Shown here in pieces: positions 18,961-58,353 of a stretch of DNA of 64,000 nt. Positions within the stretch are counted from its first letter, which is position 1; each line of letters opens with the position of its first letter. The DNA is taken from assembly GCA_951812955.1 (NCBI GenBank), contig OX638340.1:800001-864000 (forward strand), given 5' to 3'. A model generated the notes under the pieces. That model made no database searches. It was not told the DNA's origin and worked only from the letters and a program-made list of their open reading frames with translations. Origin of the DNA: an uncultured Gemmatimonadota bacterium. GTDB lineage: Bacteria; JAAXHH01. Made by a program: the position numbers and the translations under genes.

Positions 18961-21207
18961 CTATTTCAACATTTTCACGATTTCATCATGCCCGGCTTTC
19001 TGCGCACGCGCAAACGGCGTAGCCCATTCCGCGCCCCCGGCACTGGGATCCGCGCCTCGTCCAAGCAGGAACTCCACCATGTCCCGGTGCCCCCAGCGCG
19101 CAGCCCATCCAAGCGGCGTCGAGCACCACTCGTCATCGATGGCTTCAATGGCCGCGCCGCGATCCAGCAACAGGGCGGCCTTTTCCACGTCACCGATCGC
19201 GGCCAGCTTGTGCAGGTAGGTGACGCCGTGCCAGTTGGCGTTATTGGGATCAGCCCCGCTGTCAAAAAACAGGTTCAGCATGTCCAGGATATCGTCATGC
19301 GGTCGCAAGGCGGCTCCGTCCAGTTTCCAGCCCTTTCGCCGTCTGAAGGCGTATCCCATGTAGTTGTTGGCGTACCACGGACGGTTCAGTTCGGCGCCAG
19401 CGCGGATCAGCATTTCGATAATCTCCTTGCGGGCGAATCCGGCTGCCATGCAAAGCACCCCGTAGTCGCCTCCGTAATTGGCCAGTCCTGGGTCCGCGCC
19501 GAGCAGTTCTCCAACGACCGGAATGTTATCTCTTAAAACGTACAAACCAATATCTGCCGTTGCACCGTGCTGATAGAGCAGGTTGATCATTTCCTCATTT
19601 TTGTCCCGTCCCAGTGCCTGGGTCAATGGATTGCCGCTCGACTCCACCGGCGCATTCGGGTCGGCTCCGCGTTCCAGCAGGAGTTTTGCGGTCTCGAGGT
19701 GATCGCCGGCTACGGCTTCGTACAACGCGTGACCGCGAGGCGCGTTGTACTCTGGCGCGTTGGGATCGGCCCCTTGGTCCAGCAGAAGTCGAACGATATC
19801 GGTATACCCCTGCCCCGCCGCGCTGTAGAGGGGGGAGAACCCGCAGGAATCCTGGTCGCTGACCAGGTTGCTGTCCCGCGCGAGCAGTTCCCGTACTCGC
19901 CGTTCGTCCCCCAGGGCACACGCGACGGTCATGCTGTATTCCGCTCCCCTCGCGACCAGGTATCCAGTCAGCAGCGGATTGGTCCGCCCCTGGGTTTTGC
20001 GGGCTCGAAACACGGCCAGGTGAAGGGGTTTGCATCTATCCCACCTTACCGGATCCGGTTCGGCCCCCAAATCCAACAGCAGGGCCGTCATTCCCAGGTT
20101 GTATTCTTCCACGGCCACGTGCAGCGGCCGACTGCCGCGTTCGTCGCCGGCGTTAACCAATTCCGGCGAGGCATTAAAAAACGCACGGGCCTCTTCCAGA
20201 TCGCCCTCCCGAACGATCTCGCAGGCGCGCTGGCCTACAGGGGGCGCTTCGTACCTGTTTGAAATCGCCTCCGTCAACAGTCCGGCGATCTCGTCGTATC
20301 CGCGGTCCCGGGCCCGATCCAGCGGCGGCACGTGGTATTCGAGTCCCGATGCCGAGGCGGGATCCGCGCCATGGTCGAGCAACAGGCGTACTGCTTCCGC
20401 ATGCCCTTCCCTGACAGCGAAGTGGAGCGGCTGGTAGTAAGCCCAGTTGCAGTTCGCCAGCCCCGGCTCTTTAAGCAACAGATCCTGGATCCTGGCCAGG
20501 TCTCCTTCAACCGCGGCCAACAGCATGTCCCATACCCTATCTGGCTTGCCATCCATGAAAAGACCTTGCTCGTTCGTGAAATCGGGTCGAATCCATTTCA
20601 TAACTCGGTCTCCGAATGCATCGTCCGTCGACGGCGCGTAATGATTGAGGTCCTGGTAAAGGACGCGGAAAAGACGGGGTTTCAGTTTGTTGCGGGCTTC
20701 GTAGAGCCGCTTGCGTACCGTGCCCGCTTTCAAACCCATGAACCCCGCGATTTCAGTCGGGGAATAGTCTCCAATATACCTCAGCAGCGTTACTTCTCTT
20801 AACGTCTCCGGCAGTGCTTCGACCGCCTCGCGGACCTTGTCGCTCAGGTCTTCGCGCGTAACCCGGTCCAGGGGACTTTCCCCGGTGGCCTGTAGTTTGT
20901 CCTCCATGGGCACAAGTACGTGGTTCTGACTTCTCCGGTACCGATAGCACTGCCATTGCACGATGCGTCGCAGCCAGGCCGGAAACGCGTCCGGTTCACG
21001 CAGCGACCGGATGTTCTGCCACGCGGCGACAAACCCTTCCTGCGTGGCGTCCTCCGCCAGGTGGCGTTCACCCAGGAGGCTTAGCGCGTAACCGAAAGCC
21101 ATGTCCTGATAGTAAGCCACCAGCTTGCCGAAGGCGAATCCTCGATCTGAATCGGGTACCGTGGCGTCCGTGGAGGCCTGTATGCATTTTAAAATATCGT
21201 TGGTCAT
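18961..21207 (-). CDS. ECF (group IV) sigma-70 factor fused to a ~550-aa C-terminal ankyrin-repeat domain
   Basis: Region 2 (...FVAAWQNIRSLREPDAFPAWLRRIVQWQC...) and region 4 (LREVTLLRYIGDYSPTEIAGFMGLKAGTVRKRLYEARNKL), followed by many ANK repeats (..PLHFAVREGHAEAVRLLLDHGADP..). Start taken at ATG 21207 (MTNDILK). Confidence 0.8.
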   Translation of the reverse strand: MTNDILKCIQASTDATVPDSDRGFAFGKLVAYYQDMAFGYALSLLGERHLAEDATQEGFVAAWQNIRSLREPDAFPAWLRRIVQWQCYRYRRSQNHVLVPMEDKLQATGESPLDRVTREDLSDKVREAVEALPETLREVTLLRYIGDYSPTEIAGFMGLKAGTVRKRLYEARNKLKPRLFRVLYQDLNHYAPSTDDAFGDRVMKWIRPDFTNEQGLFMDGKPDRVWDMLLAAVEGDLARIQDLLLKEPGLANCNWAYYQPLHFAVREGHAEAVRLLLDHGADPASASGLEYHVPPLDRARDRGYDEIAGLLTEAISNRYEAPPVGQRACEIVREGDLEEARAFFNASPELVNAGDERGSRPLHVAVEEYNLGMTALLLDLGAEPDPVRWDRCKPLHLAVFRARKTQGRTNPLLTGYLVARGAEYSMTVACALGDERRVRELLARDSNLVSDQDSCGFSPLYSAAGQGYTDIVRLLLDQGADPNAPEYNAPRGHALYEAVAGDHLETAKLLLERGADPNAPVESSGNPLTQALGRDKNEEMINLLYQHGATADIGLYVLRDNIPVVGELLGADPGLANYGGDYGVLCMAAGFARKEIIEMLIRAGAELNRPWYANNYMGYAFRRRKGWKLDGAALRPHDDILDMLNLFFDSGADPNNANWHGVTYLHKLAAIGDVEKAALLLDRGAAIEAIDDEWCSTPLGWAARWGHRDMVEFLLGRGADPSAGGAEWATPFARAQKAGHDEIVKMLK

Positions 21208-21431
21208 CGTCTGCCGTTGGGTTTCACCTGCAGCATCATTAATTAGTGAAATTCGTATTAAACTAGTACCATAAATCCTACCAGACGTTACAAATAGTTG
21301 ATAGATTGACACCACATTTTACGATTTCCGGGAATCGAAGCCGATCAGGCGGGCTGAATGATCACGAATATGATGAGATGAACAAAAGTCAACCGTAGCA
21401 AGTCGTTTACGTTGAATGTGGGGATAGCGCT

Positions 21432-21822: not shown

Positions 21823-22737
21823 TCAGGTCCCCCCGGAGCCGTAATCCGCCAGGAGGTAATGCACGGCCAGGTTGGTGAAGTTGCCCCAACGGTCCGCGAA
21901 TTCCCGGATTCGCTCCTCGGAAACCCGCTCTCCGTTGAAGTAATGCCGCTCGATGGAGCGCTTAACCGCCAGGTCGCCCGCGGCGATGACGTTGCCCCTC
22001 CCCACGTAACGGGCGAGAAACCAGTCCGCCGTCCAGCGGCCGATTCCCACCAGGGCCGTCAGCGCCCGTTGCACCGAAGCGTCGTCCATTTCCGCCAGTC
22101 CATCCAGGTCGACTTCGCCCGACTGGATCGCCTGCGCCAGGTTGATGATATACCGTTCCTTCTGCCTGGAAAACTGCAATGGAACCAGATCGCCCGGGTT
22201 CAGTTGCGCCAGCCGCCCGGGGGTCGGGAAGGCATAGTGGGTTTCGCCACCGAAATCCACGGACTCTCCAAACTCGGCGACTAGCCTTCCCCGTACCGTG
22301 TAGGCGAACCCGAGGTTGATCTGCTGGGCCGTGATGGAGGAAACGAGCATCTCGAAGGGATCTACCTGCAGGTTGGGTCGCAGGCCATGGTGTTTGTCGA
22401 CCGAGGCGGACAGGACAGGGTCCTTTGACGCGAATGCGTAGAATTCCGGTAGCGGGAAGGAAAGGCCGAGGATCTTTCCGGCCGCCCCGAGCGCCGTGTC
22501 GATCACCGAGGAATCCGCCTGTACAGCCGCATCCCTGTGCGTCAGACGCATATTGATCCGGTCACCCGATCGATACAGCGCGATCAGGCAAGACCCCTTC
22601 CCGGTTTCTATCACCTTGCTGAAGACACCATCCCGGAACCGGTTGGCGACGTCGCTGCCGTACCGCCGGTACCGATCGAGGGTGGCCTCGAAGTCGAGGA
22701 CCGTATCTTCATCTGCTACAGATAACTCTCCCGGCAT
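21823..22737 (-). CDS. alkA: DNA-3-methyladenine glycosylase II (AlkA-like, HhH-GPD superfamily)
   Basis: HhH-GPD region LTALVGIGRWTADWFLARYVGRGNVIAAGDLAV with the catalytic Asp; N-terminal AlkA-like domain. Confidence 0.7.
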   Translation of the reverse strand: MPGELSVADEDTVLDFEATLDRYRRYGSDVANRFRDGVFSKVIETGKGSCLIALYRSGDRINMRLTHRDAAVQADSSVIDTALGAAGKILGLSFPLPEFYAFASKDPVLSASVDKHHGLRPNLQVDPFEMLVSSITAQQINLGFAYTVRGRLVAEFGESVDFGGETHYAFPTPGRLAQLNPGDLVPLQFSRQKERYIINLAQAIQSGEVDLDGLAEMDDASVQRALTALVGIGRWTADWFLARYVGRGNVIAAGDLAVKRSIERHYFNGERVSEERIREFADRWGNFTNLAVHYLLADYGSGGT

Positions 22738-22853
22738 GATGGTCTGGTATTTCCCGACTCAACGAAGTCGACGCGGCCGTGCACGAACCGCACGAATCGT
22801 GTAGTCCGTGCGGTCTGAGCGGTCCGCAAGCTGCCTGATAAGACTTAATTCGA

Positions 22854-23207
22854 TCAGGATTCGTTTGGCTTCCAAAGACCGACGAAGGTGCCCTCGATAT
22901 CCGTTATCCACGCGAAATGCCCCATGCCCGGAACTTCGGTCGGCGGAACGATGGACGATCCGCCCAGTTCCTCGGCCTTCGCGATATACGCATCGAGATC
23001 GTCGACCTGTACATAGATCAGCGTATAGTTGTGCGGTTCATGGCCGAGCGCTGAAATGTGTCCGCTGATCCCCGAATCATCATCCGGCAGGATCATGGAA
23101 GCATGTTCATGGGATTCCATGTTCCACCCGAACAAACTGCCGTAGAAGGCCTGTGTCTCTTCCCGGTTCTTACAGCCGATCTCGAAGTGTACGACGGGGT
23201 TTGGCAT
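22854..23207 (-). CDS. VOC-family protein (glyoxalase fold)
   Basis: 117 aa; VVHFEIGCKNREETQAFYGSLFGW ... HFAWITDIEGTFVGLW. Confidence 0.7.
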   Translation of the reverse strand: MPNPVVHFEIGCKNREETQAFYGSLFGWNMESHEHASMILPDDDSGISGHISALGHEPHNYTLIYVQVDDLDAYIAKAEELGGSSIVPPTEVPGMGHFAWITDIEGTFVGLWKPNES

Positions 23208-23260
23208 GTTGATTCTCCCTGGGTTGTGGCGCGGGTACCTAGCGCGAGATTGAATACAAC

Positions 23261-23312
23261 GGTCAATACGTGGTGCTCAGCTCAGGTCAACACGTGGTGC
23301 TCAGGTCAATGG
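23261..23312. repeat. about 2.3 tandem copies of a ~24-bp unit GGTCAAYACGTGGTGCTCAG(CTCA), each containing CACGTG
   Basis: The repeat is read directly. It sits 54 bp upstream of the start of the VOC gene (23207, minus strand) and downstream of the ydeI-like stop. Confidence 0.5.
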
Positions 23313-23322
23313 TTGCGAAATA

Positions 23323-23913
23323 TCATCTGTACTTGTCGTGCAGGCCCTGTCCGGCCAGGATCATGGGCAGAATCTTCTCCAGACGCTTTTTTCTGGTCTC
23401 CTCACGTTTGGCCTCGGCGACATGCTCGGCGAATGCTCTCCGCTTTCCAGGGGAGAACGCTTCGAAGCGTTCGCGGAGGTCTTCGTTTTCGGCCAGGACG
23501 ACGGCTAATTCGTCAGGAATCTGGAGAGGCTTGTTACGGTCCGCCTTGATCTCCCGGCCCTGGCGCTGGTTCTCGATAGACTCTTCTACGTAGGACCGAA
23601 GCAGCCCTTCGTCGATTTCGTCCTCGGTCCGGATTCTCCACTGTCTCAGGGCCTTTGTCCTGCCTTCCTGGGCATTGACCAGCACACCTCGTTCGTCACG
23701 CAGCAGCGCGCCCTGGTGGAACCATATGCTGACGAAGTCCTTGAAGGCGGCCAGACCGATCAGGTTTTTACCCTGAAAGGTATAGCACGGCGCGCCCCAC
23801 TTGACGGTTTCTACGAGTTCCGATTCGGCCACCACGGTGCGTAACCGGTCCAGGACTGAGCGCCATTCGGCGTGCGCCTCCAGGTACTCGGGTACGGTCT
23901 TGAATCGTTTCAA
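23323..23913 (-). CDS. YdeI/OmpD-associated (DUF1801) family protein
   Basis: MKRFKTVPEYLEAHAEW...VKWGAPCYTFQGKNLIGLAAFKDFVSIWFHQGA is the DUF1801 pattern; C-terminal ...RAFAEHVAEAKREETRKKRLEKI is YdeI-like. Confidence 0.6.
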   Translation of the reverse strand: MKRFKTVPEYLEAHAEWRSVLDRLRTVVAESELVETVKWGAPCYTFQGKNLIGLAAFKDFVSIWFHQGALLRDERGVLVNAQEGRTKALRQWRIRTEDEIDEGLLRSYVEESIENQRQGREIKADRNKPLQIPDELAVVLAENEDLRERFEAFSPGKRRAFAEHVAEAKREETRKKRLEKILPMILAGQGLHDKYR

Positions 23914-23976
23914 ATGATGTCCTTTCGAAGACGGTCAGATTGTGGGCCGGTGCCGGTCCCAGTGCGTTGGGACAAT

Positions 23977-26488
23977 TTACCGGGGTCCTCGCACCGCCGT
24001 GGAATCTATCGCTTTAGAACCGGGCGTGGAGGCGCCGCCGAACAGACTGAGCCGGCCCGAGATCGCGGCTTCCACGTCCAGGTCGTAAACCTGGGAAATG
24101 GTGGTAACGATGGGACGGATCTGCTTTTCAATGTAATGACCGTAATCAACGGGCGCGTCAAGCTGGCCTTCCGGTTGAGGTCCGTCTCGCGTGATCACGT
24201 ACCGAATGACGCCGGTGGGATTGTCCATGAGTCTGGCGGCCTTTACGTGGGGCGGTACCGAGCGCGTGTAGAACTCCACCGGTTTTCGCAGGTTCTTTCT
24301 GTACACCAGCAGGTCGTCTTTTTGCCCGGACTGTACAGAGAGGACCCACCTGAAGATCTCGTCTTCGATCTCGACACCGGGCGATTCGTGAAATACCCGG
24401 TCGAGCAGGACGGCCTGCAGCTGGTGCGCCAGGTCGGTCCAGTCCCTTCGTACTGCTTCCATCCCGACGATTTCCACCCGGTCGCCATCGCGGTCGCGTC
24501 TGAGCCCCGCGTATCCCTTGGCCCGTCCCCGTTCGCTGTCCCCCCGCATGGATGGCAACAGAAACCGGTGGTAGTGCTTTTCCAGTTCCAGTTCGAGAAA
24601 AGAGGAAACGCCATACCGCTCCTTGACGTGCTCGGCAAGCCGTTCGTTGATACGATTGCACACCGCGCCACCGAGCCTAAGGGCTTCACCCGGATCGGCA
24701 AGGTCTGGCGCGTTCAGATCGACGAAAACCGAGTCGGTATCCCCATACAGCACCTTGTAGCCGTCTTTCTCCAGCTCGTCGCGACACCACCTTAGAATGT
24801 AGTGGCCGAACTCGGTGATTGCGCCGGCCAGCTGGGGCGCGGCGAATCGGCAGGAAGCCGACGCCAGCACGCCGTAGAACGAATTCATGACGATCTTGTA
24901 GGTGAAGGAAGCAAGGTCGTCGCCGCTGGCCTTGGCCTCCTCGCGGCTTTTAAAGAACTGCTCCAGCATGGAGGGCAGGATGCCGGGCGTTCGGGTGAAT
25001 CGCGCGCCGTTGGGCGCGGTAAGACAGTCATCTTCGTCCATCTCGTCCCGTGCCTCGATATGGGCCAGGGGATCGATGTTGAAGGTTCGTATGATGGACG
25101 GATAAAGGCTCTTGAAATCAAAGACGAATATGTTCCTGTACAGCCCTGCCTTCGACGGTATGATGAGCCCCCCCGGCGCGCCGGCGCCCGGGGTACGGTC
25201 CACGCCGGTTGTCGGCGCCACCATGCTGCGCTGATGCAGGGCGTTGATGTAGATATTGTCGAAGGCGGCCACGCTCACCCAGGCGCGTTCCAGTGGCAGG
25301 CCCGTGAGCAGTCCCCTGCGCAAGGTAAGGTTGATCAACCCTTCCGCTTCCAGGATATCCAGAACCAGCCGGGCATCCTCCAGGCAATAGGCGCAGAAGA
25401 GGTTACGGTCCTCGCGATAGACTTCCGTGATCTGCTCCGCCCTCGAATTCCCCGAATCCTCTTCGAGCAGCTTACCCCGGCCCAGGATGGCGTGGGCCAC
25501 CGTGCCCAGCCGGTAGTCATCGAACCTTTGCAGCGTGCCGCGCAGGAGATGCAGGGCATCCAGGATCTGGCGCCCGTGGATGACCATGGTGCTGCCGCCC
25601 CAAACTTCGCCGGACCGGTACCAGGACTGGTCCGCCGTCCGCCCGAGCTGAAAAGGCACGTTCAGGTCCCTGAAGCGCCGTTGCAGCACTTTCATATCGA
25701 AGTCGACCAGGTTCCATCCGGTGAGCAGGTCGGGATCCATTTCGAGCAACCTCGCCGACACACCGCGAAGCATCGACGCCTCGTCGGCCCAGCAGACCAG
25801 GGAGGCCGGGTCACCCGGAGCGGGTGCGCCCACCATGTGGATTTCTTCCGATTCGACGCCCGAGATCGTATCCGCGAGGATCAAGCCGACGGCGTAAATG
25901 GTGGTCGCTTTCGGATCCGTTTCTATGTCCAGAGCCAGTACGCGGAATGACGGCTCCCAGTAAGCAGGCTTCAGCGTAGGGTTGGCATACACTCGGTCGA
26001 CCCGGTCGCCGGGCGTCCAGGAACCGCTGATCCGGACGCCGCCGCGCAATCCAAGTCCGATCAGGAACTGTCTGCCGAAAGGCAGGTCGCCTTCGTAACT
26101 TCGCGTGCCCTGGGCCTCGAGCCCTTTGGCCAGGCCGCGCTGATCCCGTACGCGGTCGCACTGGACGCCGACCACCGGTTCGCCATCCATGGTTGTGTAT
26201 TCCGACGGGACTAACCGTGCCGTGACCTCGTTGGAACCGATCCGGTCGGATGCCGCCTGCGTTTCCGAGGTCCTGACGAAGAGTGCAGGAGAAACGCGAT
26301 CATCCGTAAACAGGAACGTATGACCACCCTGGAGCTTGCCGACGCCGCAGATGACGTCACGTCCGCGCTCCGTGCGATGAAAGACGTGGAGCAGGTAGCC
26401 TACGTCTCCTCCGCCATCCGGGGATTCGTGCTGATCCGCGGGGTCACTGGACGGAAGTGAGCGATCCCTGCCGGGGTTGTGTTCAGTT

Positions 26489-26502
<14 letters not shown>
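23977..26502 (-). CDS. polB: DNA polymerase II (family B, PolB)
   Basis: Exo motif LALDIETD; pol motifs [34 protein letters not shown]. Confidence 0.9.
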
Positions 26503-29446
<2,944 letters not shown>

Positions 29447-29476
29447 CCAGGTGACTCCGTAATACGTCTGGCACCT

Positions 29477-30481
29477 TCAGGGCCGGTAATGGTAGAAAGC
29501 GAGTTCTTCGTACTCCACGTTACTTTTAAGCGTCAGTCTGTGCGGGCTCGACACCCGGCTGATGATCTCTTTGTCCGCCAGCCATTCGCATACCGTCGTC
29601 ACGCCCCGGAGATTCATCTGGTTATCGAAGTATGTTTCGATTTCCGTGACCGAGCGGACCGAACCCTCCTCCGCCAGGTAATCGAGTATGGGCTGGAACA
29701 TTACAGGAATGCGCTCTTCCAGGTACGCCTCGATGCGCGTGAGGGCGCCGGCGATCGCTTCGCTGGAAACAGGCTGGTCGATCAGGCGGGTGTATACGGC
29801 ATCGAAAAAGTCCGGATTCAACCGAAGCGCCTGTTGGATGACTTCACGGCTGGCCAGTTGACTGTCGAGAAACACCTCAATCTTTGCCAGTCCGTTCACA
29901 CAGTGCAATATGTAAAGGAAACTGTAGTGAAGATCCTCCTTCACGTGAAACCACTTCTCGGCTTTGTACAGGGTAGGTATCACGAAAGCGCCGGCATGCA
30001 TGAGCTGCACCTGCCGGTCTCTCTCCTTAAGTTCCCCGATACCCTCGTACAGTTCGCGAATGGTTTCGTCCCGGGTAAACAGCAGGCGGCTTTCCGCGAA
30101 CGAGGCATGCATGAAGGAGCTTTGCAGGCCCCCTTCTATCATTTTCCTGAACGCGGAACGGGGCTGCATGAACACGTGAATGTATACGTCGTGTTCCAGG
30201 AGTGCCGCGCCTTCCGAGACCTCGTCGTCGTCCCTGCCTTCCTTGCGAAAAAGGTCCTTGTCGTCTCGTGTTACGACGATCAGGTCGATATCGGATTTCT
30301 CCCAGACACGGTCGGCGGAAAGGCTACCGAACAGAATCGCCGCAAGCACGTGGCGGTCCTGTTTCGCCTTCGCGACAAAGGCGTCGAGAGCTGCCTCGAA
30401 CCGCTGCTGTATAGACTGTGATGTGTTTTCCATCGAGGTATCCCGCCAGCCGAACAATTCTACCGCCCGGCCGTTTGACAT
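29477..30481 (-). CDS. nucleotidyltransferase-fold (Pol-beta superfamily; ANT/KNTase-like) protein
   Basis: GS...D.D NTase motif AAILFGSLSADRVWEKSDIDLIVV, followed by a ~200-aa helical C-terminal domain. Ends 30 nt upstream of uvrA on the same strand. Start is 30481 or 30433. Confidence 0.5.
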   Translation of the reverse strand: MSNGRAVELFGWRDTSMENTSQSIQQRFEAALDAFVAKAKQDRHVLAAILFGSLSADRVWEKSDIDLIVVTRDDKDLFRKEGRDDDEVSEGAALLEHDVYIHVFMQPRSAFRKMIEGGLQSSFMHASFAESRLLFTRDETIRELYEGIGELKERDRQVQLMHAGAFVIPTLYKAEKWFHVKEDLHYSFLYILHCVNGLAKIEVFLDSQLASREVIQQALRLNPDFFDAVYTRLIDQPVSSEAIAGALTRIEAYLEERIPVMFQPILDYLAEEGSVRSVTEIETYFDNQMNLRGVTTVCEWLADKEIISRVSSPHRLTLKSNVEYEELAFYHYRP

Positions 30482-30763
30482 GAGCGGTTAAATTAACCAT
30501 TTGGACGTGACGGGTCAACGCGCAAATACCTTGCTGAACGCCCTGCACGCCTCGGTTGGAGGCATGTCGACCGGGTTCAGTCCGTATCGAATTTGACGCC
30601 CGGTTCCGGCCGCTGTGTGCTACCGCAAGGTGGTTTCAGACCCCGATATTCCTTGAATTGCTCCACTAGATCGATCAAAATGGGTATAGATTCCCGATCC
30701 GATTCCTTGGCCGTGTCATTTCCGGACAAGTAGCCTGAGGTACCGAACCGTGAGGATGGTTCC

Positions 30764-32332
30764 GTGACCTTCACGCCCAATGGACCGCATTCTTCCGCCG
30801 TGCATGCCGTTCTGCGCCATCGGGGCGGCCTCGCCCCGGAGCTGAGGCCCGATCCGACGCTCTTCCAACGAGTCGGGGGCCGATCCGTGATCGCGAAGGT
30901 AATCGACGGGCTGTACGACCGGATCGAAGTAGATTCCGACCTGCGTCCGATGTTTACCCGGACATTGGCTCCGGAACGTATGAAACAGAAAGCCTTCCTC
31001 GAAGAATGGATGGGAGAAGAACCGGGCTATACCCATCATCACGCCTACGGCGGAATCAAAAACCGCCACGGGCATATTCACATCACGCCGGAATCCGCGG
31101 AACGGTGGCTGGCGCACATGACCGATGCGTTGCTCGAGCATGTGAGGGATGACCGGCTCGTGAACGAAGCGCTGGCCACCCTCGGTCCCCTCGCCCGCGG
31201 ACTCGTCAACGAGAAGAAGCCACCAGAAAGCCCCGGACAACTCAGATGCTTCAGGGAAAAACGATGGAGACAGCCGGCCAAAATGGCGGCCAGGGGACAG
31301 ATGGAAGCACTCGAGAACTTTCTCGAGGAGGATTCCACGGTATTGGGCGATCCTCGTCACAGCGCAATCATCCTCGCGGAAGCGGCGCTGAGGGGCCATA
31401 CGCGGGTCGCGGCCCTGCTGCTTGACCGGGGGGTGGACGTAAACATACCATCTGCCCATTCGAGCGATATCATGATGACCGCCTATTGTGCCGCGCGAAG
31501 CAAGAGAAAAGACGAAACGGCCGGTTACCTGGCGGACCGCGGCGCGGTGTACGATGTCTTCAGCGCCTGTTTTCTCGGAGACATGGACCGGGTTGCCGTC
31601 CTGCTCGAAGCCCATCCCGGCCTGGTCAACGCAAGCGACCCCGCCTGCGACCTGTTGCCCGTGACCCCGTTGCACCATGCCGTGTACGGCGGCCATGAAC
31701 CCGTCGCCAGGTTCCTCTTTGAACGTGGCGCGGAGACCGGCGTGAACAGCACAGCCCTGTTGAAATACGCGGCGGAACGGGGACAGGCGAGCCTGGTCCG
31801 GTTGTTGCTGGCACACGGGGCGGATGCTTCGAGGATCGGTTGCGGCCGCTGGGTCGTCGATCCCGAGATCTCCGCGCTCCTGCTCGCCCGCGGCGCGGAC
31901 GTGAACTATCCCGATGGGAATTGGGTCTGGACGGCATGCACGGGAAACAACAGCCAGCGGGACGACCCCGCCTACGTGCAGGCACTGCTGGACAAGGGGG
32001 CCCGGATCGATACGGTTCTGCGCGGCGCCCAGGCACTGCACTTTGCCGCAAAGGCGGGATTCACTGGGGTCATGGAAGTGCTGTTGGAAAACGGGGCGCC
32101 GGTCGACGGGCAAAATGACGATGGCGAAACCCCCCTGTTCTACGCGCTGAAGGCGGGTCCCAGGGCCGATGTTGTCAAATCCGTGGAACTGCTGTTATCC
32201 CATGGCGCAGATCCGAATATTGAAGACAGGCTGGGCAAGACGCCCCTGGGAAATGCCTGCCGGATGAAGCGTCCCGATAAAGCTCGAATCGTCTCGGTGC
32301 TCGAAGCGGCTAGTCCTTCCTTACCGGCGTAA
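30764..32332 (+). CDS. truncated hemoglobin (2/2 Hb) N-terminal domain fused to an ankyrin-repeat domain
   Basis: Globin part: LFQRVGGRSVIAKVIDGLYDRIEVDSDLRPMF...KQKAFLEEWMGEEPGYTHHHAYGGIKNRHGHIHITPESAERWLAHM (the trHb pattern, with proximal-His region). Then seven or more ANK repeats (..TPLHHAVYGGHEPVARFLFERGAE..). Start codon uncertain (GTG/ATG near 30764). Confidence 0.65.
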   Translation: MTFTPNGPHSSAVHAVLRHRGGLAPELRPDPTLFQRVGGRSVIAKVIDGLYDRIEVDSDLRPMFTRTLAPERMKQKAFLEEWMGEEPGYTHHHAYGGIKNRHGHIHITPESAERWLAHMTDALLEHVRDDRLVNEALATLGPLARGLVNEKKPPESPGQLRCFREKRWRQPAKMAARGQMEALENFLEEDSTVLGDPRHSAIILAEAALRGHTRVAALLLDRGVDVNIPSAHSSDIMMTAYCAARSKRKDETAGYLADRGAVYDVFSACFLGDMDRVAVLLEAHPGLVNASDPACDLLPVTPLHHAVYGGHEPVARFLFERGAETGVNSTALLKYAAERGQASLVRLLLAHGADASRIGCGRWVVDPEISALLLARGADVNYPDGNWVWTACTGNNSQRDDPAYVQALLDKGARIDTVLRGAQALHFAAKAGFTGVMEVLLENGAPVDGQNDDGETPLFYALKAGPRADVVKSVELLLSHGADPNIEDRLGKTPLGNACRMKRPDKARIVSVLEAASPSLPA

Positions 32333-33347
32333 TGTCTTTCAAAAACTTAACAAGAGATTTTCGCTCCGCCGTCGGGCCGTGTATTTCAATCCCCACTTCC
32401 GCCCATACCAGCGGCGTCGTGCCGTGTTCATCGTCTGTCGCGGCGGGATCGGCGCCGGATTCGACGAGCAACTTCGCGATCTCCCTGTTCCCGCATAGAT
32501 GGAGGGGCGTCTGCCCGAAATCCGCACGGGCGTTAGCATCCGCTCCCCAGTCCAGCAGCGCCCGGACCGTATCCTCCCATCCATGCTGAACCGCGGCGTG
32601 AAGTGGCGTGCCCACCACGGCGTGGACGCCGATCTTTCCCGAATATGCTGTGACACCCCCATCTCTTTTGTGGACCTGGCGTAGTTCGTCTGTCCTTCCA
32701 AGCGCCGCAAGCTGGCACGGGTCGGCCGGCGCGCCGCGCGCAATCAGGAATTCCGCGACCGCGCGGCACCGCTCCCCGCGGGAAAGGGCCGCGCCCAATG
32801 GCGTGTTGCCCTCGCTGTCGAGCGTATTCAGGCGCGCTTGGTGGTCGAGAAGCAGCCCGGCCGTTTCGACTGACATGGCCACGTGGAGGGGTGATACTCC
32901 GCCTAGGTCAGGGCGGGCCGCCGCTTCAGGATCTTCCGCGAGAATCGCACGAACGGTAGAGACGTCATCTAGCAGGCACGCGGCGTGGATGTCGACCCTG
33001 GCGCCCCGGTCCCGCAATAGAGCGGCGGCCTCAAGGTGTCCCCAGTGTGCGGCCAGGTGCAAGGCGCTCCAACCGCCGTAGGAATCGGCGCCGTGGTTCG
33101 GATCCGCTCCATTCCGCAGCAGCAATTCGATCACCCTCGTATCCCCGCGCTCGGCCGCCAGTTGTATAGGCACGGGACGGCCTCCCCAACGGGGATGGGC
33201 CACCGGTTCATTAACGATACCGGGCTCACGGGAAAGGACTTCTTCGACCTGCTCCGGGTCACCCTGCCAGATGGCGGCTCGCAGTCGTTCCTTCGCCGTC
33301 TCGCCGTTCCGGGCCGTCTGACCGCCGGGTTCAAGGGGAGTGGACAT
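32310..33347 (-). CDS. ankyrin-repeat protein
   Basis: ANK repeats (..SALHLAAHWGHLEAAALLRDRGARVD..; ..TPLHLCGNREIAKLLVESGADP..). Start chosen at MSTPLEP (ATG 33347, RBS AAGGAAGGA); the ORF is open to 33470. Confidence 0.8.
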   Translation of the reverse strand: MSTPLEPGGQTARNGETAKERLRAAIWQGDPEQVEEVLSREPGIVNEPVAHPRWGGRPVPIQLAAERGDTRVIELLLRNGADPNHGADSYGGWSALHLAAHWGHLEAAALLRDRGARVDIHAACLLDDVSTVRAILAEDPEAAARPDLGGVSPLHVAMSVETAGLLLDHQARLNTLDSEGNTPLGAALSRGERCRAVAEFLIARGAPADPCQLAALGRTDELRQVHKRDGGVTAYSGKIGVHAVVGTPLHAAVQHGWEDTVRALLDWGADANARADFGQTPLHLCGNREIAKLLVESGADPAATDDEHGTTPLVWAEVGIEIHGPTAERKSLVKFLKDITPVRKD

Positions 33348-33534
33348 CGGTCTATCCTTCCTTTCTCCATGTTCTGTCATCGAACGGTCGAACGATTCGT
33401 CGATGAATGGGTGTACGTTTACACGATCCAGCGTAGTGGAAAGGCTGGAGGGGAACGGTATTGGGCCCATGATCTGTCCGTCCGGGTTCCTGCCGGGATA
33501 GGTTTTTTCAGGCGACGGCTCTTGTTTTTCGGAG

Positions 33535-33621
33535 GCGATCCGCGATGGCCGCGAAGAAGGCGTCCATGTCCGCGTGCAGGATCGTACGGGATTGATTCAC
33601 GATGGGCTGGATTGGACTACA
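33535..33621 (-). pseudogene. remnant of a dinB (Pol IV) 5' end, duplicated together with the downstream ankyrin gene
   Basis: Minus strand translates ...VNQSRTILHADMDAFFAAIADR..., matching MNRIRTILHADMDAFFAAVEQR of the intact dinB at 44674. About 40 nt are near-identical at DNA level. It is stopped after ~19 more codons. Confidence 0.5.
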
Positions 33622-33840
33622 TCACACAAAAACCGCGTTGCAGGATTGTTAGTCCTGATTATACTGTCTGGCGTGGATTCTTACAAGCGCATCGGGAAAG
33701 CGGATCAGCAAAAATCAGTCTATCGCGCGGGATGTGCGTTGGATGTGCGTTGGAAATTGCGTCGATCCATTTGCGGTGGGACGGTTGAATGTCGTGATAC
33801 CGCGCGGACCCGACTCAACCGCAGCATTGAGGGAGGTAAC

Positions 33841-34452
33841 ATGCCCGGTTATGAGGCACTGAACCAGGCGCTGATCCGTGCCGTGGAAGACGGTGATGTC
33901 GAAAGGGTAAGGGAGGCTGTAAGGCAGGGCGCCGATGCGGCGTGCATTACGCCCGCGCATATTCCTCCCCAGAAGGAAACCGACGAACATTACGAGATTA
34001 TGCGATATCTTTTTGCTAGGGGGACCGATGTCAACTTCGCCGGATTCGAAGAAGGGATACTCATGACCTTCTCGGCATACCGCGGACAGTTGCGTTATCT
34101 TCGCCTCTACCTGGAAGCCGGCGCCGACATCAATCTCGCCCAGCCTATGAACGGCGTTACGGGCCTGCACGTGGCGGTTCAGCACAATCTACTGGAAATC
34201 GTACGATTCTTTCTCGACCATGGCGCCAGGGTCGACCAGGCCTGCCACGATGACGCGCCGACCCCGGATCCCGGTCACGTATACGGAGAAACGGCCCTGC
34301 ATTTCGCCGCGGCGGGCGCCGACAGGGAGATCGTACAAATGCTCCTGGATGCCGGTGCGGACCGGTCCGCTATTTCTTCCCGAGGCGAATCGCCGCTGGA
34401 CTACGCGATGCAGAATAACCGGCCGGAAGACGTGCTTCGGCGGCTCAGGTAG
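33841..34452 (+). CDS. small ankyrin-repeat protein (paralog A; ~80% identical to 44808-45419)
   Basis: MPGYEALNQALIRAVEDGDVERV...ITPAHIPPQKETDEHYEIMRYLF...GVTGLHVAVQHNLLEIVRFFLDHGARVD..; RBS GGGAGG. Confidence 0.8.
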   Translation: MPGYEALNQALIRAVEDGDVERVREAVRQGADAACITPAHIPPQKETDEHYEIMRYLFARGTDVNFAGFEEGILMTFSAYRGQLRYLRLYLEAGADINLAQPMNGVTGLHVAVQHNLLEIVRFFLDHGARVDQACHDDAPTPDPGHVYGETALHFAAAGADREIVQMLLDAGADRSAISSRGESPLDYAMQNNRPEDVLRRLR

Positions 34453-35843: not shown

Positions 35844-37577
35844 TCAGGAAACGGCACCGGCTTCCCGCAGACGGTCCGCGATGGACGCGTGCCCGTACCG
35901 TTCCGCCCAGGCGAGCGGTGTGGTCCAGGGTTCCCCATCGGGCTGAGGATCGGCACCGTGCTGGAGATACAGTTCGACCAGATCCTCGCGTGCCCAGCGG
36001 GACGCCCAGGCGAGCGGCGTGGAGTGGAGCAGCGTGTCCCTGCCTTCGAGCGTGGCGCCGTGGTCGAGAAACAGGCGGGCGAACTCGATCCGCTCGTCCT
36101 CTCTCAGCACCGGCTCTCCCCAGACCTTGCCCGTTGCCGCGATATGATGAAGGAGGGATGTGTCGCGCCGGCCCTTCACGTTCGGGTCCACCCCGTGGTC
36201 GAGGAACATGCGTACGATATCGGGGAATATGGATCGATCGAAATCACGGTACTGGCGATGGGGACAACAGGGCCAGAGACGAATAGGCTGGATGATCAGA
36301 CCGTACCACCGGGGGTCGTCCAGGGCCCAGTCCAGTTTGCGCAGGCACACGCCCACCACGCTGGGATCACCGCCGCAGGCGGCCCCCCAAAGAATCTCCT
36401 CGACCAGTTCAGGCTTGAGGCTCAGCGCCATGACCGCCGCAGAGGTATCGCATTCCAGGGCCGCACTGTCGGGAGTCATCGAACCGCCGTACCTGTAGAG
36501 CAGACGCTTCATGCGTTCGTCCCTGTTGTTGTAGGCGCGGCTCATGGGATCGCCAGACGCGTAAACGGCGGCGTTAGGATCGGCACCGCGATCCAGAAGC
36601 AGTTGCGCGATGTCGTACATCCCGTCGCCCGCTGCGATCCAAAGCGGTTCGCCCCAGTTGTATGTTTCTTCTTCCAGGGATTGTATTCGGTACCGCTGGT
36701 CCGGGTCCATGCCGAGATCGAGCAGCAGCTTCACCATCTCGTATCGTTTATGACGGACAGCATCACCCAGCAGGTGGGTTTCGGTTTCAATATCCGGTTC
36801 GAACTGGTCCTGGTGACTTTCCGCGATCTGACGTACGGCTTCCAGGTCTCCAAGCATGACACTCGTTCGAAGACTTCGCGGGGCCCCCGCGGTCATCAGG
36901 ATGCCCGCGGCCATGAAACAGCCTTCAGCCCGGCGCCTGTCCGTTGCGACGGTTTGTTCCGCAGCCAGCTCGAGCGGAGTCCGGCCCTCCAGGTTGGTCT
37001 TGCCCGTATCGGCGCTGGCAGTCAGCAGCGCTTGAACGAGACCGGGATAGCCGTGGCTGGCGGCGTGGTGCAGGACCGTGTTTCCGTTCTCGTCGCAGGC
37101 CTCCGCTAGTTCGGGCGTTTCGTGTATATCCCGCATCGCGCCCGCCACATCGCCATCCTCCACTTTTCGGGCGAGCAGAACGACCTCTGGGGAAACGGTC
37201 AGGTTCGGACAGAGGTTCGCCTCGCGTCTCCGCTCCAGTTCTTCATTGATTGTTTCTATGATATCACCGAATCCGCGGTCGCGAGCCATAGCCAGGGGCG
37301 TGGACGCGTCCCTGTGGGGATAGACCCCCTGGTTGGGATCGGCGCCCGCGGCCATGAGTGCGGAAACGGCTTCCGTCTGGCGGTTTACCACCGCGTGATG
37401 CAGGGCACGGTGCTCATCGAAAGAAGCCGTATCCACACCCACCAGGTGGGGTGCGACGGCCAGAATGGTATTAAGGCGTTTCATGTCTCCGGCGGCGGAC
37501 GCCTGGCACAGTTCGGCCACGGTGAAGACGCCGGAGGTCATCCCGTTCGTCATGATTCCTTCTCCTCGATTCGTCAT
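35844..37577 (-). CDS. ankyrin-repeat protein (577 aa)
   Basis: Many ANK repeats (..TVLHHAASHGYPGLVQALLTASAD..). Two alternative ATG starts (37577, 37553) created by a 24-bp tandem duplication; overlaps the upstream SRPBCC stop (ATGA). Confidence 0.85.
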   Translation of the reverse strand: MTNRGEGIMTNGMTSGVFTVAELCQASAAGDMKRLNTILAVAPHLVGVDTASFDEHRALHHAVVNRQTEAVSALMAAGADPNQGVYPHRDASTPLAMARDRGFGDIIETINEELERRREANLCPNLTVSPEVVLLARKVEDGDVAGAMRDIHETPELAEACDENGNTVLHHAASHGYPGLVQALLTASADTGKTNLEGRTPLELAAEQTVATDRRRAEGCFMAAGILMTAGAPRSLRTSVMLGDLEAVRQIAESHQDQFEPDIETETHLLGDAVRHKRYEMVKLLLDLGMDPDQRYRIQSLEEETYNWGEPLWIAAGDGMYDIAQLLLDRGADPNAAVYASGDPMSRAYNNRDERMKRLLYRYGGSMTPDSAALECDTSAAVMALSLKPELVEEILWGAACGGDPSVVGVCLRKLDWALDDPRWYGLIIQPIRLWPCCPHRQYRDFDRSIFPDIVRMFLDHGVDPNVKGRRDTSLLHHIAATGKVWGEPVLREDERIEFARLFLDHGATLEGRDTLLHSTPLAWASRWAREDLVELYLQHGADPQPDGEPWTTPLAWAERYGHASIADRLREAGAVS

Positions 37578-37593
37578 GATTCCTTCTCCTCGT
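37546..37593. repeat. perfect 24-bp tandem duplication (TTCGTCATGATTCCTTCTCCTCG[A/T]) spanning the RBS/start junction of the SRPBCC-ankyrin gene pair
   Basis: Read directly. On the coding (minus) strand each copy carries GGAGAAGGAATC-ATGA, that is RBS, ATG and the overlapping TGA. Confidence 0.6.
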
Positions 37594-38074
37594 TTGAGTC
37601 GTCGTTACCCGCGACCAGGTGGCCGTACCGATCCACGTAAGTCTTCATGAGATCGTCGTAACGGTCTTCTACGGTGGTCCCGGCCAGATACGGTCCCAGG
37701 TGGTCGATGAAGGCGTGCCAGCCCGCGGCGAAACCCATCAGGATATCCGGGGTAACGTGGGAATTCGTGAATCGCAGCCGTGTGCCGCCTTCACGGGGTC
37801 CAAGCTCCCATCTTAGCACGGAGAGTCCCCAGGTATAGGCGAACACCCGTTCAGGCGCCCATTCACAGACAATGCCCTCCAGGTTCCCTTCTGATTTGAA
37901 ATCCACGAAAAACCGGCCGCCGATCCGGCGCTCCAGCGAGGTCTCATACTTCATCCACGCAGAGATTCCGTCCGCCGTCGTGACGGCATCCCACACCCGG
38001 GAGACCGGATGGGCGTACGTCCGTTCGATTTCTATACAGTATTCCGGCGTTATCCTGGCCAGAGATTCTGCCAT
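37574..38074 (-). CDS. SRPBCC-superfamily protein (AHSA1/Aha1-like, START/Bet v1 fold)
   Basis: 166 aa; ...VWDAVTTADGISAWMKYETSLERRIGGRFFVDFKSEGNLEGIVCEWAPERVFAYTW... is the AHSA1-domain pattern. Confidence 0.65.
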   Translation of the reverse strand: MAESLARITPEYCIEIERTYAHPVSRVWDAVTTADGISAWMKYETSLERRIGGRFFVDFKSEGNLEGIVCEWAPERVFAYTWGLSVLRWELGPREGGTRLRFTNSHVTPDILMGFAAGWHAFIDHLGPYLAGTTVEDRYDDLMKTYVDRYGHLVAGNDDSNEEKES

Positions 38075-38324
38075 CTCGATCTCACTTCTTTAGTGTCCGT
38101 TAGCACGGTTGCCGTTACTAATAGTGGCTGTTTCAACAGCTAACGTTACAAATACTGAAATTGCGGTTGATGCCGCAAAACTCTATCTGCAAGGATCTGC
38201 GATCCGATGCATTTCCGAAACGTTTCGACAGGCGCACGCTGGCGATGCGCATATCGACGTTTGTATTGACAGTACCGCACGGTGGCACTAACCATGTTTT
38301 AACGGTATATTATTGGAGATGAAA

Positions 38325-39119
38325 ATGCGGTTTGACAAGGAAAAACAGTGGATCGGCGCAGTGTACGCCGAAGACCTCGAACTCATGGCCGAAATGTTGG
38401 CGGAGGACCCGTCGCTGGCCGATTTCAAGCATGAAGCCTTCGATGATCCGTACCGCTCGGGACGCTTCCCTGTCGCCACCCTCGTTTTTGCCGTAACCGG
38501 ACCGCCCCAACAGCAGATCGACTGGCGCCAGGTAGAGTGCAGAATCAACTTCGACATGGTCAGGTTGCTGGTCGAAGCAGGCGCCGACCCCAATATCGAC
38601 AACGTGCACGGCCGTCCGCTCTGCACGTGCCGGGACGAGCAAATCGCACAGTACCTGATCGATCACGGCGCCGACATCAACCTGTGGCACGGTAACGGCG
38701 GCGCGCCCGTCTACTTTTCGGTCTGGCAAATCGATCCCGAAAGATTGAAGATGCAGATCCGGCTGGGAGCCGACCCAGGTCAGATCAATCCTCAAAACGG
38801 ATCATCCGCGTTTCATTCAGCCGCGGAAGTGAGACCTGGCGATCACCAGCTACCGGATCACCGCGAGACCATCCGGATTCTCGGCGACGCCGGCCTGGAC
38901 CCCAATCACCGGGCGGGAATAGGCGTACAGTCCGACTGGGGGCCCATCTACCAGGGGGATGCGCCCCTGCACATGGCCGCCCAGTTAAACCGGCCCGAAG
39001 TAATCGAGGCCCTGGTCGCGGCCGGATGTAGCCGGACCCTTACGAATGCCAACAACGAAACGCCGCGAGAAGTGGCAGTTAGAGTCGGTCGCGGTCCGGA
39101 CATTGCCGGGCTTCTTTAA
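38325..39119 (+). CDS. ankyrin-repeat protein
   Basis: ANK repeats (..DMVRLLVEAGADPNIDNVHGRPL..; ..APLHMAAQLNRPEVIEALVAAG..). Start at ATG 38325 or 38313. Confidence 0.8.
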   Translation: MRFDKEKQWIGAVYAEDLELMAEMLAEDPSLADFKHEAFDDPYRSGRFPVATLVFAVTGPPQQQIDWRQVECRINFDMVRLLVEAGADPNIDNVHGRPLCTCRDEQIAQYLIDHGADINLWHGNGGAPVYFSVWQIDPERLKMQIRLGADPGQINPQNGSSAFHSAAEVRPGDHQLPDHRETIRILGDAGLDPNHRAGIGVQSDWGPIYQGDAPLHMAAQLNRPEVIEALVAAGCSRTLTNANNETPREVAVRVGRGPDIAGLL

Positions 39120-44674: not shown

Positions 44675-44807
44675 GATAGCCAGGCAGGCAAACGATGGAA
44701 AAGTGAATACATTGACCAGTAACTATACAACCAATTAAACTATACCTACTGCCGGCGTACAAGTGCTTTGTTGACCTGGTAAACTGACCACCGGGAGGGA
44801 GAAAACA

Positions 44808-45419
44808 ATGACCGACAAGGCCGATCTCAACAAGTTACTGATAGATTCCGTGGAGCATGGTGACCCGGTGACAGTATCCAGGGCGGTTGAAATGGGAGCC
44901 GATCCATCCTGCATTACTCCTGCACACATACCGCCTCAGCGGGAAACCGAGGAGCATTTCGAGATCATGCGATACCTGTTCTCCGTGGGTACTGACGTCA
45001 ATTTCGCCGGGCTCGACGAGGGCATCCTCATGACCTTTTCCGCTTACCGCGGACAATTGCGATACCTGCGCCTGTACCTCGAAGTCGGCGCGGATATCAA
45101 CCTCGCCCAGCCCATGAACGGCGTCACGGGACTGCACGTGGCGGTCCAGCATAATCTGCCGGACGTCGTACGATTCTTCCTCGAAAACGACGCCATCGTC
45201 GATCAGGCCTGCCACGATGACGCGCCGACAACCGATCCCGGTCACGTATTTGGAGAAACAGCCCTGCATTTCGCCGCAGCAGGCGCCGACAGGGAAATTG
45301 TTGAAATGCTCCTGGCCTTCGGAGCGGACCGCGCTTCGAAATCTTCCAGGGGAGAAACACCGCTGGACTACGCGGTTCGCAACAGCCGGTCTCCGGACGT
45401 GCTGCGTTTACTCAAGTAG
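44808..45419 (+). CDS. small ankyrin-repeat protein (paralog B of 33841-34452)
   Basis: MTDKADLNKLL...ITPAHIPPQRETEEHFEIMRYLF...GVTGLHVAVQHNLPDVVRFFLEN...; RBS GGGAGG. Confidence 0.85.
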   Translation: MTDKADLNKLLIDSVEHGDPVTVSRAVEMGADPSCITPAHIPPQRETEEHFEIMRYLFSVGTDVNFAGLDEGILMTFSAYRGQLRYLRLYLEVGADINLAQPMNGVTGLHVAVQHNLPDVVRFFLENDAIVDQACHDDAPTTDPGHVFGETALHFAAAGADREIVEMLLAFGADRASKSSRGETPLDYAVRNSRSPDVLRLLK

Positions 45420-49425: not shown

Positions 49426-49452
49426 TGCGCGAGGCGAAGGTCTTAAGACGAT

Positions 49453-50343: not shown

Positions 50344-50384
50344 TCGCGCGTACACAGCCCAACTATCGGTTAAGGTAGGATCAG

Positions 50385-52972: not shown

Positions 52973-53145
52973 GATAGACTCCTGTTTTGGATTTCGACTC
53001 AGGATATAAACCGCGCGGAACACATCCGTGTATTTGGGCTAAATGAAAATTCGAGTGTCATTCCCAAAAATGAATTGATTTTAGTCTCTACTGTAATCCT
53101 ATTGGAGCCAGTATACAAACACGATGAAACAAGCTGAGAACAAGC

Positions 53146-54372: not shown

Positions 54373-54400
54373 GGCGGGAAGCGGCGTTTGAAACATACGC

Positions 54401-58199: not shown

Positions 58200-58353
58200 T
58201 GCCGATATCGGCGTGTGCAGGACGCCGCCCGTCCGCGGAAAGAACATAAGTTCACCTGTGTCGGTTCCCAATCTATCGTGGCAACCTTCTTCCTGCCCGT
58301 CCGGCGGACGCACGGGTGCTTCGGCGGTCTCATGATCGCTTGAAGGAGGTTCC

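Follow-up and report, generated by a model that had tools for sequence, protein, structure and literature searches.

A truncated hemoglobin-ankyrin fusion family with an apparently complete heme pocket and a tentative partner-directed redox function

The window analysed here is a stretch of 64,000 nucleotides from contig OX638340.1 of an uncultured Gemmatimonadota bacterium, and our subject is the gene within it (Table 1) for a protein in which an N-terminal truncated hemoglobin (trHb) is joined to a long ankyrin-repeat (ANK) domain. A first-pass annotation made from the letters had proposed this fusion, and it is real: in Pfam, residues 32-144 of a single open reading frame (ORF) match positions 1-116 of the 121 in the Bac_globin profile PF01152 (E=3.8e-15; 56.6 bits, where the gathering cutoff is 21), and ANK families match the same ORF with E-values of 1e-20 to 5e-38. 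The fusion, hereafter trHb-ANK, is strongly supported as an old orthologous family, and the product is strongly supported as a soluble cytoplasmic protein of two domains. Its sequence matches place the globin in group II (trHbO-type) of the T-family truncated hemoglobins, and it is apparently heme competent, with a complete pocket. By analogy with characterised proteins, we tentatively propose that trHb-ANK may function as a partner-directed heme redox or antioxidant enzyme of the peroxidase type, a reading to which we give a probability of about 0.45.

The same architecture was found well beyond the window when it was searched for, as the first-pass annotation had advised. About 100 of the best 120 clusters at 90% identity retrieved by a word-indexed search carry PF01152 plus ANK, representing at least seven lineages by label (among the source labels are Gemmatimonadetes, Latescibacteria, Chloroflexota, Planctomycetes, Armatimonadetes, and Deltaproteobacteria), and in a set of 45 representatives, clustered at 50% identity, Pfam detected both domains in 41. 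When residues 1-200 were searched exhaustively against 1.84 billion representatives, 482 proteins matched at E<=1e-3, of which 136 reached E<=1e-10, and approximately 38 of the best 150 matches are proteins of 400-580 amino acids (aa) with a single N-terminal globin match. The closest GTDB species genomes, whose proteins are 70-92% identical, are metagenome-assembled genomes (MAGs) of ~3.5-3.9 Mb labelled Gemmatimonadetes or Latescibacterota, some with isolate names suggestive of sponges or corals (APA_bin_41, IRC1_bin_16, SB0665_bin_8, and Plut_88884), and distant copies occur in MAGs whose labels point to the marine water column, an oxygen-minimum zone (Pseudomonadales ETNP8), and groundwater Planctomycetota. 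The trHb-ANK family is rare, phylogenetically broad, and not restricted to host-associated bacteria.

Both halves of the protein evolve under constraint. In pairwise comparisons of the window gene with ~20 orthologues, at synonymous divergence (dS) of roughly 0.7-1.2, the ratio of nonsynonymous to synonymous divergence (dN/dS) lies between 0.12 and 0.18 in the globin and between 0.12 and 0.20 in the ANK part, and these low values in both parts indicate that both are maintained by selection. The first-pass annotation had named a missed stop and a degenerate globin as the findings that would undo its proposal. We consider it extremely improbable that trHb-ANK is an artefact or a decaying gene of this kind, in which a missed stop or a frameshift joins two genes or the globin has lost its heme. 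A missed stop is ruled out by the intact ORF, which has no in-frame stop between the two domains and is uninterrupted in the window gene and in more than 25 orthologous loci, in a fusion that recurs across phyla with purifying selection on both halves. A degenerate globin is ruled out by the invariance of the key heme-pocket residues, described below, and by a dN/dS of ~0.15.

Frame-disrupted copies do exist in some assemblies, which would favour the artefact explanation. Among the four ANK-only close homologues that we examined, no natural two-gene version of trHb and ANK was found: P0054/L027 (8330-8450) is shifted in frame by one base next to a CCC run, precisely where the two domains join, P0102/L040 (3960-4110) has a frameshift in the globin H-helix with an indel in a short direct repeat, P0065/L042 (3510-4004) is broken by a scaffold N-gap, and P0109/L041 is an ANK-only homologue with no globin nearby. 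The disruptions coincide with a C run, a short direct repeat, or a scaffold N-gap and resemble errors of assembly or pseudogenes derived from the fused gene, and since each ANK-only close homologue with an adjacent globin ORF is a disrupted fused gene, the two domains always occur in one chain. Gene callers have split such genes in three public assemblies into a "globin" and an "ANK-only" protein. A stand-alone trHb of the same subfamily is present in a Dehalococcoidia MAG (L035).

The comparison with trHb groups I, II, and III recommended by the first-pass annotation gave group II as the best match. The top phmmer matches in the PDB are the group II proteins of Geobacillus (2bkm, E=1.3e-17) and Bacillus subtilis (YjbI, 1ux8, E=1.3e-13), and the group II trHb of Thermobifida fusca (2bmm) matches at E=2.3e-8. 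The group I proteins THB1 and HbN gave weaker matches (E=4e-6 to 1e-3), and no group III protein was recognised among the 36 PDB chains with E up to 1. The fold of the globin domain is a 2-on-2 alpha-helical sandwich.

Pocket residues were counted in a family alignment of 67 sequences ranging from 100% to ~33% identity and in a second, independent set, the 45 representatives mentioned above; residue equivalences were taken from the ungapped alignment with YjbI, with an offset of +26. Y51, F64, H102, and W115 are invariant in 67/67 homologues and 45/45 representatives. They include the proximal His (H102) and the B10 Tyr (Y51), the two residues that the first-pass annotation had singled out for verification, although it had located the proximal-His region in HITPESAERWLAHM: the F8 His lies in KNRHGH, the quoted stretch holds Trp G8 (W115), and the His of HITPES is H106, which is His in only 31 of the 67 sequences. 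Trp G8 is a hallmark of group II and group III trHbs. Among other positions, R72 is conserved in 65/67 sequences and Arg F7 (R101) in 50/67. Of the two Gly-Gly hinge motifs, the first (G38-G39) is present in 65-66/67; in the second, G84 is invariant (67/67), but position 85 is Glu in the window protein and Gly in 62/67 relatives. The residues at E7, E11, and the position equivalent to YjbI Tyr63 are listed in Table 1.

The globin is preceded by a family-specific extension and followed by a structured linker. In the AlphaFold model, residues 9-20 form a confident N-terminal helix leading to the HRGG motif, which may serve as a contact between the domains or as an additional ligand of the heme. 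HRG is found in 62 of 100 full-length members, the remainder having mostly HRR (also HRRF), HRV, or HRS, and HRGG is missing from the stand-alone trHb of L035 and from a short subfamily of ~420 aa. The linker is ordered in the model, with a predicted local distance difference test (pLDDT) score of 86-90, its C162 is Cys in 50/67 sequences, and the rate of change of its protein sequence is roughly double that of either domain (dN 0.22-0.33 versus 0.11-0.16).

The first-pass annotation had assigned the remaining ~370 aa to ANK repeats, in agreement with the model, where residues 163-516 fold into 11 helix pairs that form a helix-turn-helix solenoid of tandem ankyrin-type repeats of ~33 residues. 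This half is conserved like the globin half, with a mean column identity of 0.5-0.67 per 20-residue block. The most conserved of the peptides picked for a pattern search is its family-specific CTGNNSQR, in a loop between helices 386-392 and 402-410 and with a nearly invariant C392. A metal site built from ANK Cys and His residues was considered and is unnecessary, as C242, C392, and H305 lie in or beside TPLH-motif positions of their own repeats, H305 immediately following the TPLH His (H304). The AlphaFold2 model of the window protein, computed with the family alignment, has a mean pLDDT of 94.3 and a predicted template modelling score (pTM) of 0.90, and that of P0058, a 41%-identical Planctomycetota member, has values of 92.3 and 0.90. 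A pTM of 0.90 for a two-domain chain indicates a fixed inter-domain geometry and not beads on a string.

Table 1. Positions of trHb-ANK, its elements, and other features in the window (fractions are counts in the 67-sequence alignment or, where out of 45, in the representatives)
Feature	Position	Strand	Remarks
trHb-ANK coding sequence	30764..32332	+	522 aa, GTG start, TAA stop; exact ORF
Shine-Dalgarno GAGGA	30752..30756	+	7 nucleotides (nt) 5' of GTG; GGAGGATG kept among orthologues
Sigma-70-type promoter-like element	30653..30681	+	TTGAAT (-35), 17-nt spacer, CAAAAT (-10)
Pre-A extension	30788..30829	+	residues 9-22, HSSAVHAVLRHRGG, ends in family-specific HRGG motif
HRGG motif	30818-30829		residues 19-22, ~30 residues N-terminal of Tyr B10
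Group II (trHbO-type) trHb domain, as predicted	30857..31213	+	residues 32-150
Tyr B10 = Y51	30914..30916	+	aligns with YjbI Tyr25; invariant 67/67, 45/45
Phe CD1 = F64	30953..30955	+	invariant 67/67
E7 = E71			YjbI counterpart Thr45; Glu conserved 56/67
Gln E11 = Q75	30986..30988	+	aligns with YjbI Gln49; Gln 44/67, Leu 14/67
Y89, equivalent of YjbI Tyr63	31028..31030	+	Tyr 52/67
Proximal His F8 = H102	31067..31069	+	aligns with YjbI His76; invariant 67/67; preceded by Arg F7 (R101)
Trp G8 = W115	31106..31108	+	aligns with YjbI Trp89; invariant 67/67
Inter-domain linker	31214..31255	+	residues 151-164, KKPPESPGQLRCFR, semi-conserved R-C-x-R (C162)
Ankyrin-repeat solenoid	31256..32314	+	residues 165-517, ~11 helix pairs, several degenerate
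Signature loop CTGNNSQR	31937..31960	+	residues 392-399, inside an atypical repeat, between its two helices
Convergent ANK gene	32310-33470	-	386 aa; 3' ends overlap with trHb-ANK by 23 nt (32310-32332)
DNA-repair-flavoured cluster	21823-30481	-	HhH-GPD glycosylase, family B DNA polymerase (841 aa), UvrA-like ABC ATPase (985 aa), Pol-beta/MntA-like nucleotidyltransferase
Divergent promoter	30491-30518	-	near-consensus TTGACC, 17-nt spacer, TAATTT; relatives TTGACG-N17-TATATA
Extracytoplasmic function (ECF) sigma-ANK fusion	18961-21315	-	784 aa; N-terminal sigma-70 regions 2 and 4, long C-terminal ANK array
ANK ORF (stop-to-stop)	18964-21318	-	
ANK ORF (stop-to-stop)	30734-32329	+	
ANK ORF (stop-to-stop)	32313-33596	-	
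ANK ORF (stop-to-stop)	33502-34449	+	
ANK ORF (stop-to-stop)	35847-37604	-	
ANK ORF (stop-to-stop)	38292-39116	+	
ANK ORF (stop-to-stop)	44775-45416	+	
ANK ORF (stop-to-stop)	49447-50340	+	
ANK ORF (stop-to-stop)	50379-52082	+	
ANK ORF (stop-to-stop)	53128-54369	+	
ANK ORF (stop-to-stop)	54392-56281	+	
ANK ORF (stop-to-stop)	58336-59871	+	

Our proposal of a partner-directed heme redox or antioxidant enzyme draws on the chemistry of the relatives and on known partnerships between ANK proteins and catalases. The group II trHb YjbI strips hydroperoxide groups from proteins in a manner dependent on Tyr63 (PMC9536834), and bacterial ANK proteins interact with heme catalases and raise their activity or heme loading, as in the pairs AnkB-KatB, AnkB-CatB, and Cj1386-KatA: KatB activity requires AnkB, the AnkB of Xanthomonas interacts with CatB, and Cj1386 of Campylobacter jejuni traffics hemin to KatA (PMC12754779, PMC10294975). 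The heme domain of trHb-ANK would act like its closest characterised relatives, with tight binding of O2 or peroxide, and would perform redox chemistry of the peroxidase type in which Tyr B10, Tyr89, and Trp G8 may serve as an electron relay. The ANK solenoid would provide a dedicated protein-binding surface, which single-domain trHbs lack, and might bring to the heme site a client or partner, for example a protein that has been oxidised or a heme-recycling reductase; equally possibly, this surface would localise or modulate the heme domain. The fusion could then be seen as a single-chain counterpart of the bacterial pairing of an ANK protein with a heme catalase.

Several considerations weigh against this proposal. 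The heme binding and activity of trHb-ANK are predictions, and the analogy with AnkB-KatB is a purely functional one. The positions that usually line the ANK binding groove are weakly conserved across the family, which argues against a single universal client, and no conserved operon partner or neighbour was found among distant homologues, whose contexts are unrelated. As to structure, the models imply that the globin is held in a fixed geometry against the ANK solenoid, but the two AlphaFold runs behind them had largely the same alignment and are not independent.

A serious rival, though one that we rate as less probable than our proposal, is the heme-based sensor-adaptor suggested by the first-pass annotation, where O2, NO, CO, or the redox state would alter the globin-ANK interface and switch a regulatory partner bound on the ANK groove. 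The rigid and confidently predicted inter-domain geometry could pass a conformational signal, the fusion is obligate, the conserved pre-A HRGG and linker R-C-x-R motifs could serve as coupling elements, and the presence in the same window of an ECF sigma factor fused to ANK shows that ANK modules are attached to regulators in this lineage. However, no sensor with a T-family (2-on-2) globin came to light, and those globin-coupled sensors that the reviews consulted describe have the S-family fold (PMC7475203). The ANK domain, moreover, has no enzymatic or DNA-binding output, and no conserved regulator gene lies nearby. In group II trHbs that carry Tyr B10, Trp G8, and Gln E11, the release of O2 is very slow, a property ill-suited to reversible sensing, and by analogy the closest characterised relatives point to slow-release, redox, or peroxidase-type chemistry, with which reversible gas sensing would fit less well. 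Rated slightly lower is the idea that trHb-ANK represents the first heme switch on a truncated (2-on-2) globin, in which the state of the heme would be relayed through the globin-ANK interface, with HRGG and R-C-x-R as coupling elements, and would open or close the binding groove; if true, this switch would count as a globin-coupled sensor that acts through contact between proteins and not through an enzyme activity. The "gas-responsive adaptor" and the "targeted NO-detoxifying module" put forward by the first-pass annotation are both possibilities.

The ANK domain might instead act solely within its own chain, as an internal stabiliser of the globin, as a chaperone for heme loading, or as a module for oligomerisation, with no external client, which we consider rather improbable. 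The proposals that ANK accessory proteins stabilise catalase or deliver hemin (PMC10294975), the effect of N- and C-terminal extensions on the oligomerisation and reactivity of algal trHbs (PMC7082302), the lack of family-wide conservation at the canonical groove positions, and a very high pTM suggestive of extensive intramolecular packing are all in its favour, but ~350 residues in 11 repeats are a large device to stabilise a 120-residue domain that many bacteria have as a stable protein by itself, the stand-alone trHb of L035 belongs to the same subfamily, and purifying selection on the ANK half is as strong as on the globin half. It is less likely still that trHb-ANK is a host-directed effector of a sponge or coral symbiont, with ANK targeting a host protein and the globin scavenging host NO or O2 locally. 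This would accord with the isolate names of the closest MAGs, with the 12 ANK ORFs of the window, and with the ANK expansion in sponge-associated bacteria, which has been tied to evasion of phagocytosis (PMC6372511, PMC11706023). Against it, a signal-peptide-like or Tat-like N-terminus is missing from all 107 family members (N-terminal signals only), the family is also found in MAGs that are labelled as groundwater Planctomycetota, as water-column or oxygen-minimum-zone bacteria, and as Armatimonadota, Chloroflexota, and Deltaproteobacteria, and the ANK part is orthologous across phyla with a dN/dS of ~0.15, unlike a fast-evolving effector.

Compared with the single-domain group II trHbs (YjbI 1ux8, Geobacillus 2bkm, T. 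fusca 2bmm, and Mycobacterium tuberculosis trHbO 1ngk), which have 120-130 aa and one domain, trHb-ANK has in addition the pre-A HRGG extension, the structured linker, and ~350 aa of ANK, and its E7 residue is mostly Glu instead of the Thr of YjbI. Chimeric T2/O bacterial globins are a recognised class, and the T-family chimeras known include fusions to an ABM monooxygenase (Streptomyces avermitilis), a protein kinase, and a nitrate reductase, as well as tandem multi-trHb chains (PMC7475203, PMC7082302). Our searches also brought up polymeric truncated globins, 640-1882 aa long, in which 5-11 Bac_globin domains follow one another in tandem (P0123, P0214, P0190, P0142, P0258, P0130, P0229, and P0131). 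Like these chimeras, trHb-ANK joins a truncated globin and another module in one polypeptide that is kept as a unit; unlike them, its partner is a non-catalytic ANK scaffold.

The first-pass annotation had set the fusion against globin-coupled sensors with GGDEF, kinase, or chemotaxis outputs, a comparison that mixes categories, since those proteins (HemAT and the GGDEF-, kinase-, and methyl-accepting chemotaxis protein (MCP)-linked forms) combine a 3-on-3 S-family globin with an enzymatic or signalling transmitter (PMC7475203). The two have in common an N-terminal heme globin and a C-terminal non-globin domain, whereas trHb-ANK has a 2-on-2 T-family globin of group II and a scaffold without catalytic or DNA-binding activity. 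Pfam reported no sensor-globin or protoglobin family for the window protein, and on the globin's C-terminal side there are only ANK families and no transmitter domain (MCP, GGDEF, kinase, or cyclase). With the ANK proteins linked to catalases (AnkB-KatB, AnkB-CatB, Cj1386-KatA, and ank-katE of Leptospira), the fusion shares the coupling of ANK to a peroxide-handling heme protein (PMC12754779, PMC10294975). Those proteins are separate, small, and encoded in catalase operons, the AnkB of Pseudomonas aeruginosa being described as periplasmic; the ANK part of trHb-ANK is large, cytoplasmic, fused to the globin, and has no catalase nearby, the likeness being a functional one.

We found no description of a trHb-ANK fusion in the searchable literature, and the survey of Hade et al. 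2017 (IUBMB Life 69:479) may list it. NCBIfam has no dedicated model for the architecture and gave only sub-threshold ANK matches; the automatic name given to the fusion proteins by the Joint Genome Institute (JGI) is "truncated hemoglobin YjbI/ankyrin repeat protein". The architecture is not categorically new; it is clean, conserved, and uncharacterised, and visible in automatic annotation.

The trHb-ANK gene is, on strong support, transcribed independently from its own promoter. When the upstream regions of 23 orthologues are aligned, GTG or ATG fills the start-codon column after the conserved GGAGGATG, CTTGA is invariant, and a -10 element resembling TACATT or TACTTT lies ~17-18 nt 3' of CTTGA, at a conserved promoter position ~85-110 nt 5' of the gene. 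The promoter of the window gene scores 8 of 12 matches, below the threshold of the consensus scanner, and hence is identified by its phylogenetic conservation alone. No conserved operator or palindrome was seen in the 23 regions, which share only the promoter and Shine-Dalgarno elements. On the opposite strand, a 465-aa ORF (30716-32113) is unsupported and of the antisense type expected at ~60% GC.

The gene is flanked by a divergent cluster on one side and by a convergent ANK gene on the other, and a divergent upstream gene together with a convergent downstream gene was seen in the window and in three of the four distant contexts sampled. Synteny with the window is kept only within the clade of 70-92% identity. 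The divergent promoter ends ~10 nt before the nucleotidyltransferase ATG (30481), so the corresponding mRNA may be leaderless or nearly so. Repair genes also flank other trHb-ANK copies, with UvrA in L024, of the same synteny block as the window, and a UvrD-like helicase (L022) and a RadA-like protein (L032) beside distant copies, a weak, post hoc pattern. No terminator was found between trHb-ANK and the convergent ANK gene; their 23-nt overlap recurs in the close clade and might allow transcriptional interference or antisense effects. One distant member adjoins an AhpC-type peroxiredoxin gene, which accords with the proposed redox role, and no catalase gene is among the neighbours in the window or in 13 other annotated contexts. 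A gene of the PhyH family (Fe/2-oxoglutarate dioxygenases) adjoins trHb-ANK in L040 (2678-3457) and L042 (5183-6043), and a dihydroorotate dehydrogenase gene lies 5' of it in L042 and L029; these adjacencies may only reflect the relatedness of the contigs.

No transmembrane-like segment was found in the window protein, and the lack of signal-peptide-like or Tat-like N-termini across the 107 members, assessed with a hydrophobicity heuristic and not a trained predictor, makes a cytoplasmic location most likely. The 12 ANK-repeat ORFs of the 64-kb window, between 18964 and 59871 in stop-to-stop coordinates, make the local density extreme, which agrees with the expansion of ANK proteins reported in bacteria associated with sponges. 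The ECF sigma-ANK protein among them matches TIGR02937 with 86 bits against a cutoff of 42.9 and is kept at 78-86% identity in L004, L017, L019, and L025.

The physiological role of group II truncated hemoglobins is largely unsettled, and the removal of protein hydroperoxides by YjbI has been shown only recently. The permanent attachment of ANK offers an experimental handle on this question, for any protein that ANK binds is a candidate for the globin's substrate, reductase, or regulatory target, and trHb-ANK could thus make the function of group II trHbs experimentally tractable. The family extends the short list of fusion partners of T-family globins with a non-catalytic scaffold, and its hosts belong to little-studied, mostly uncultured phyla, including symbionts with sponge- or coral-derived isolate names that face fluctuating oxygen and oxidants.

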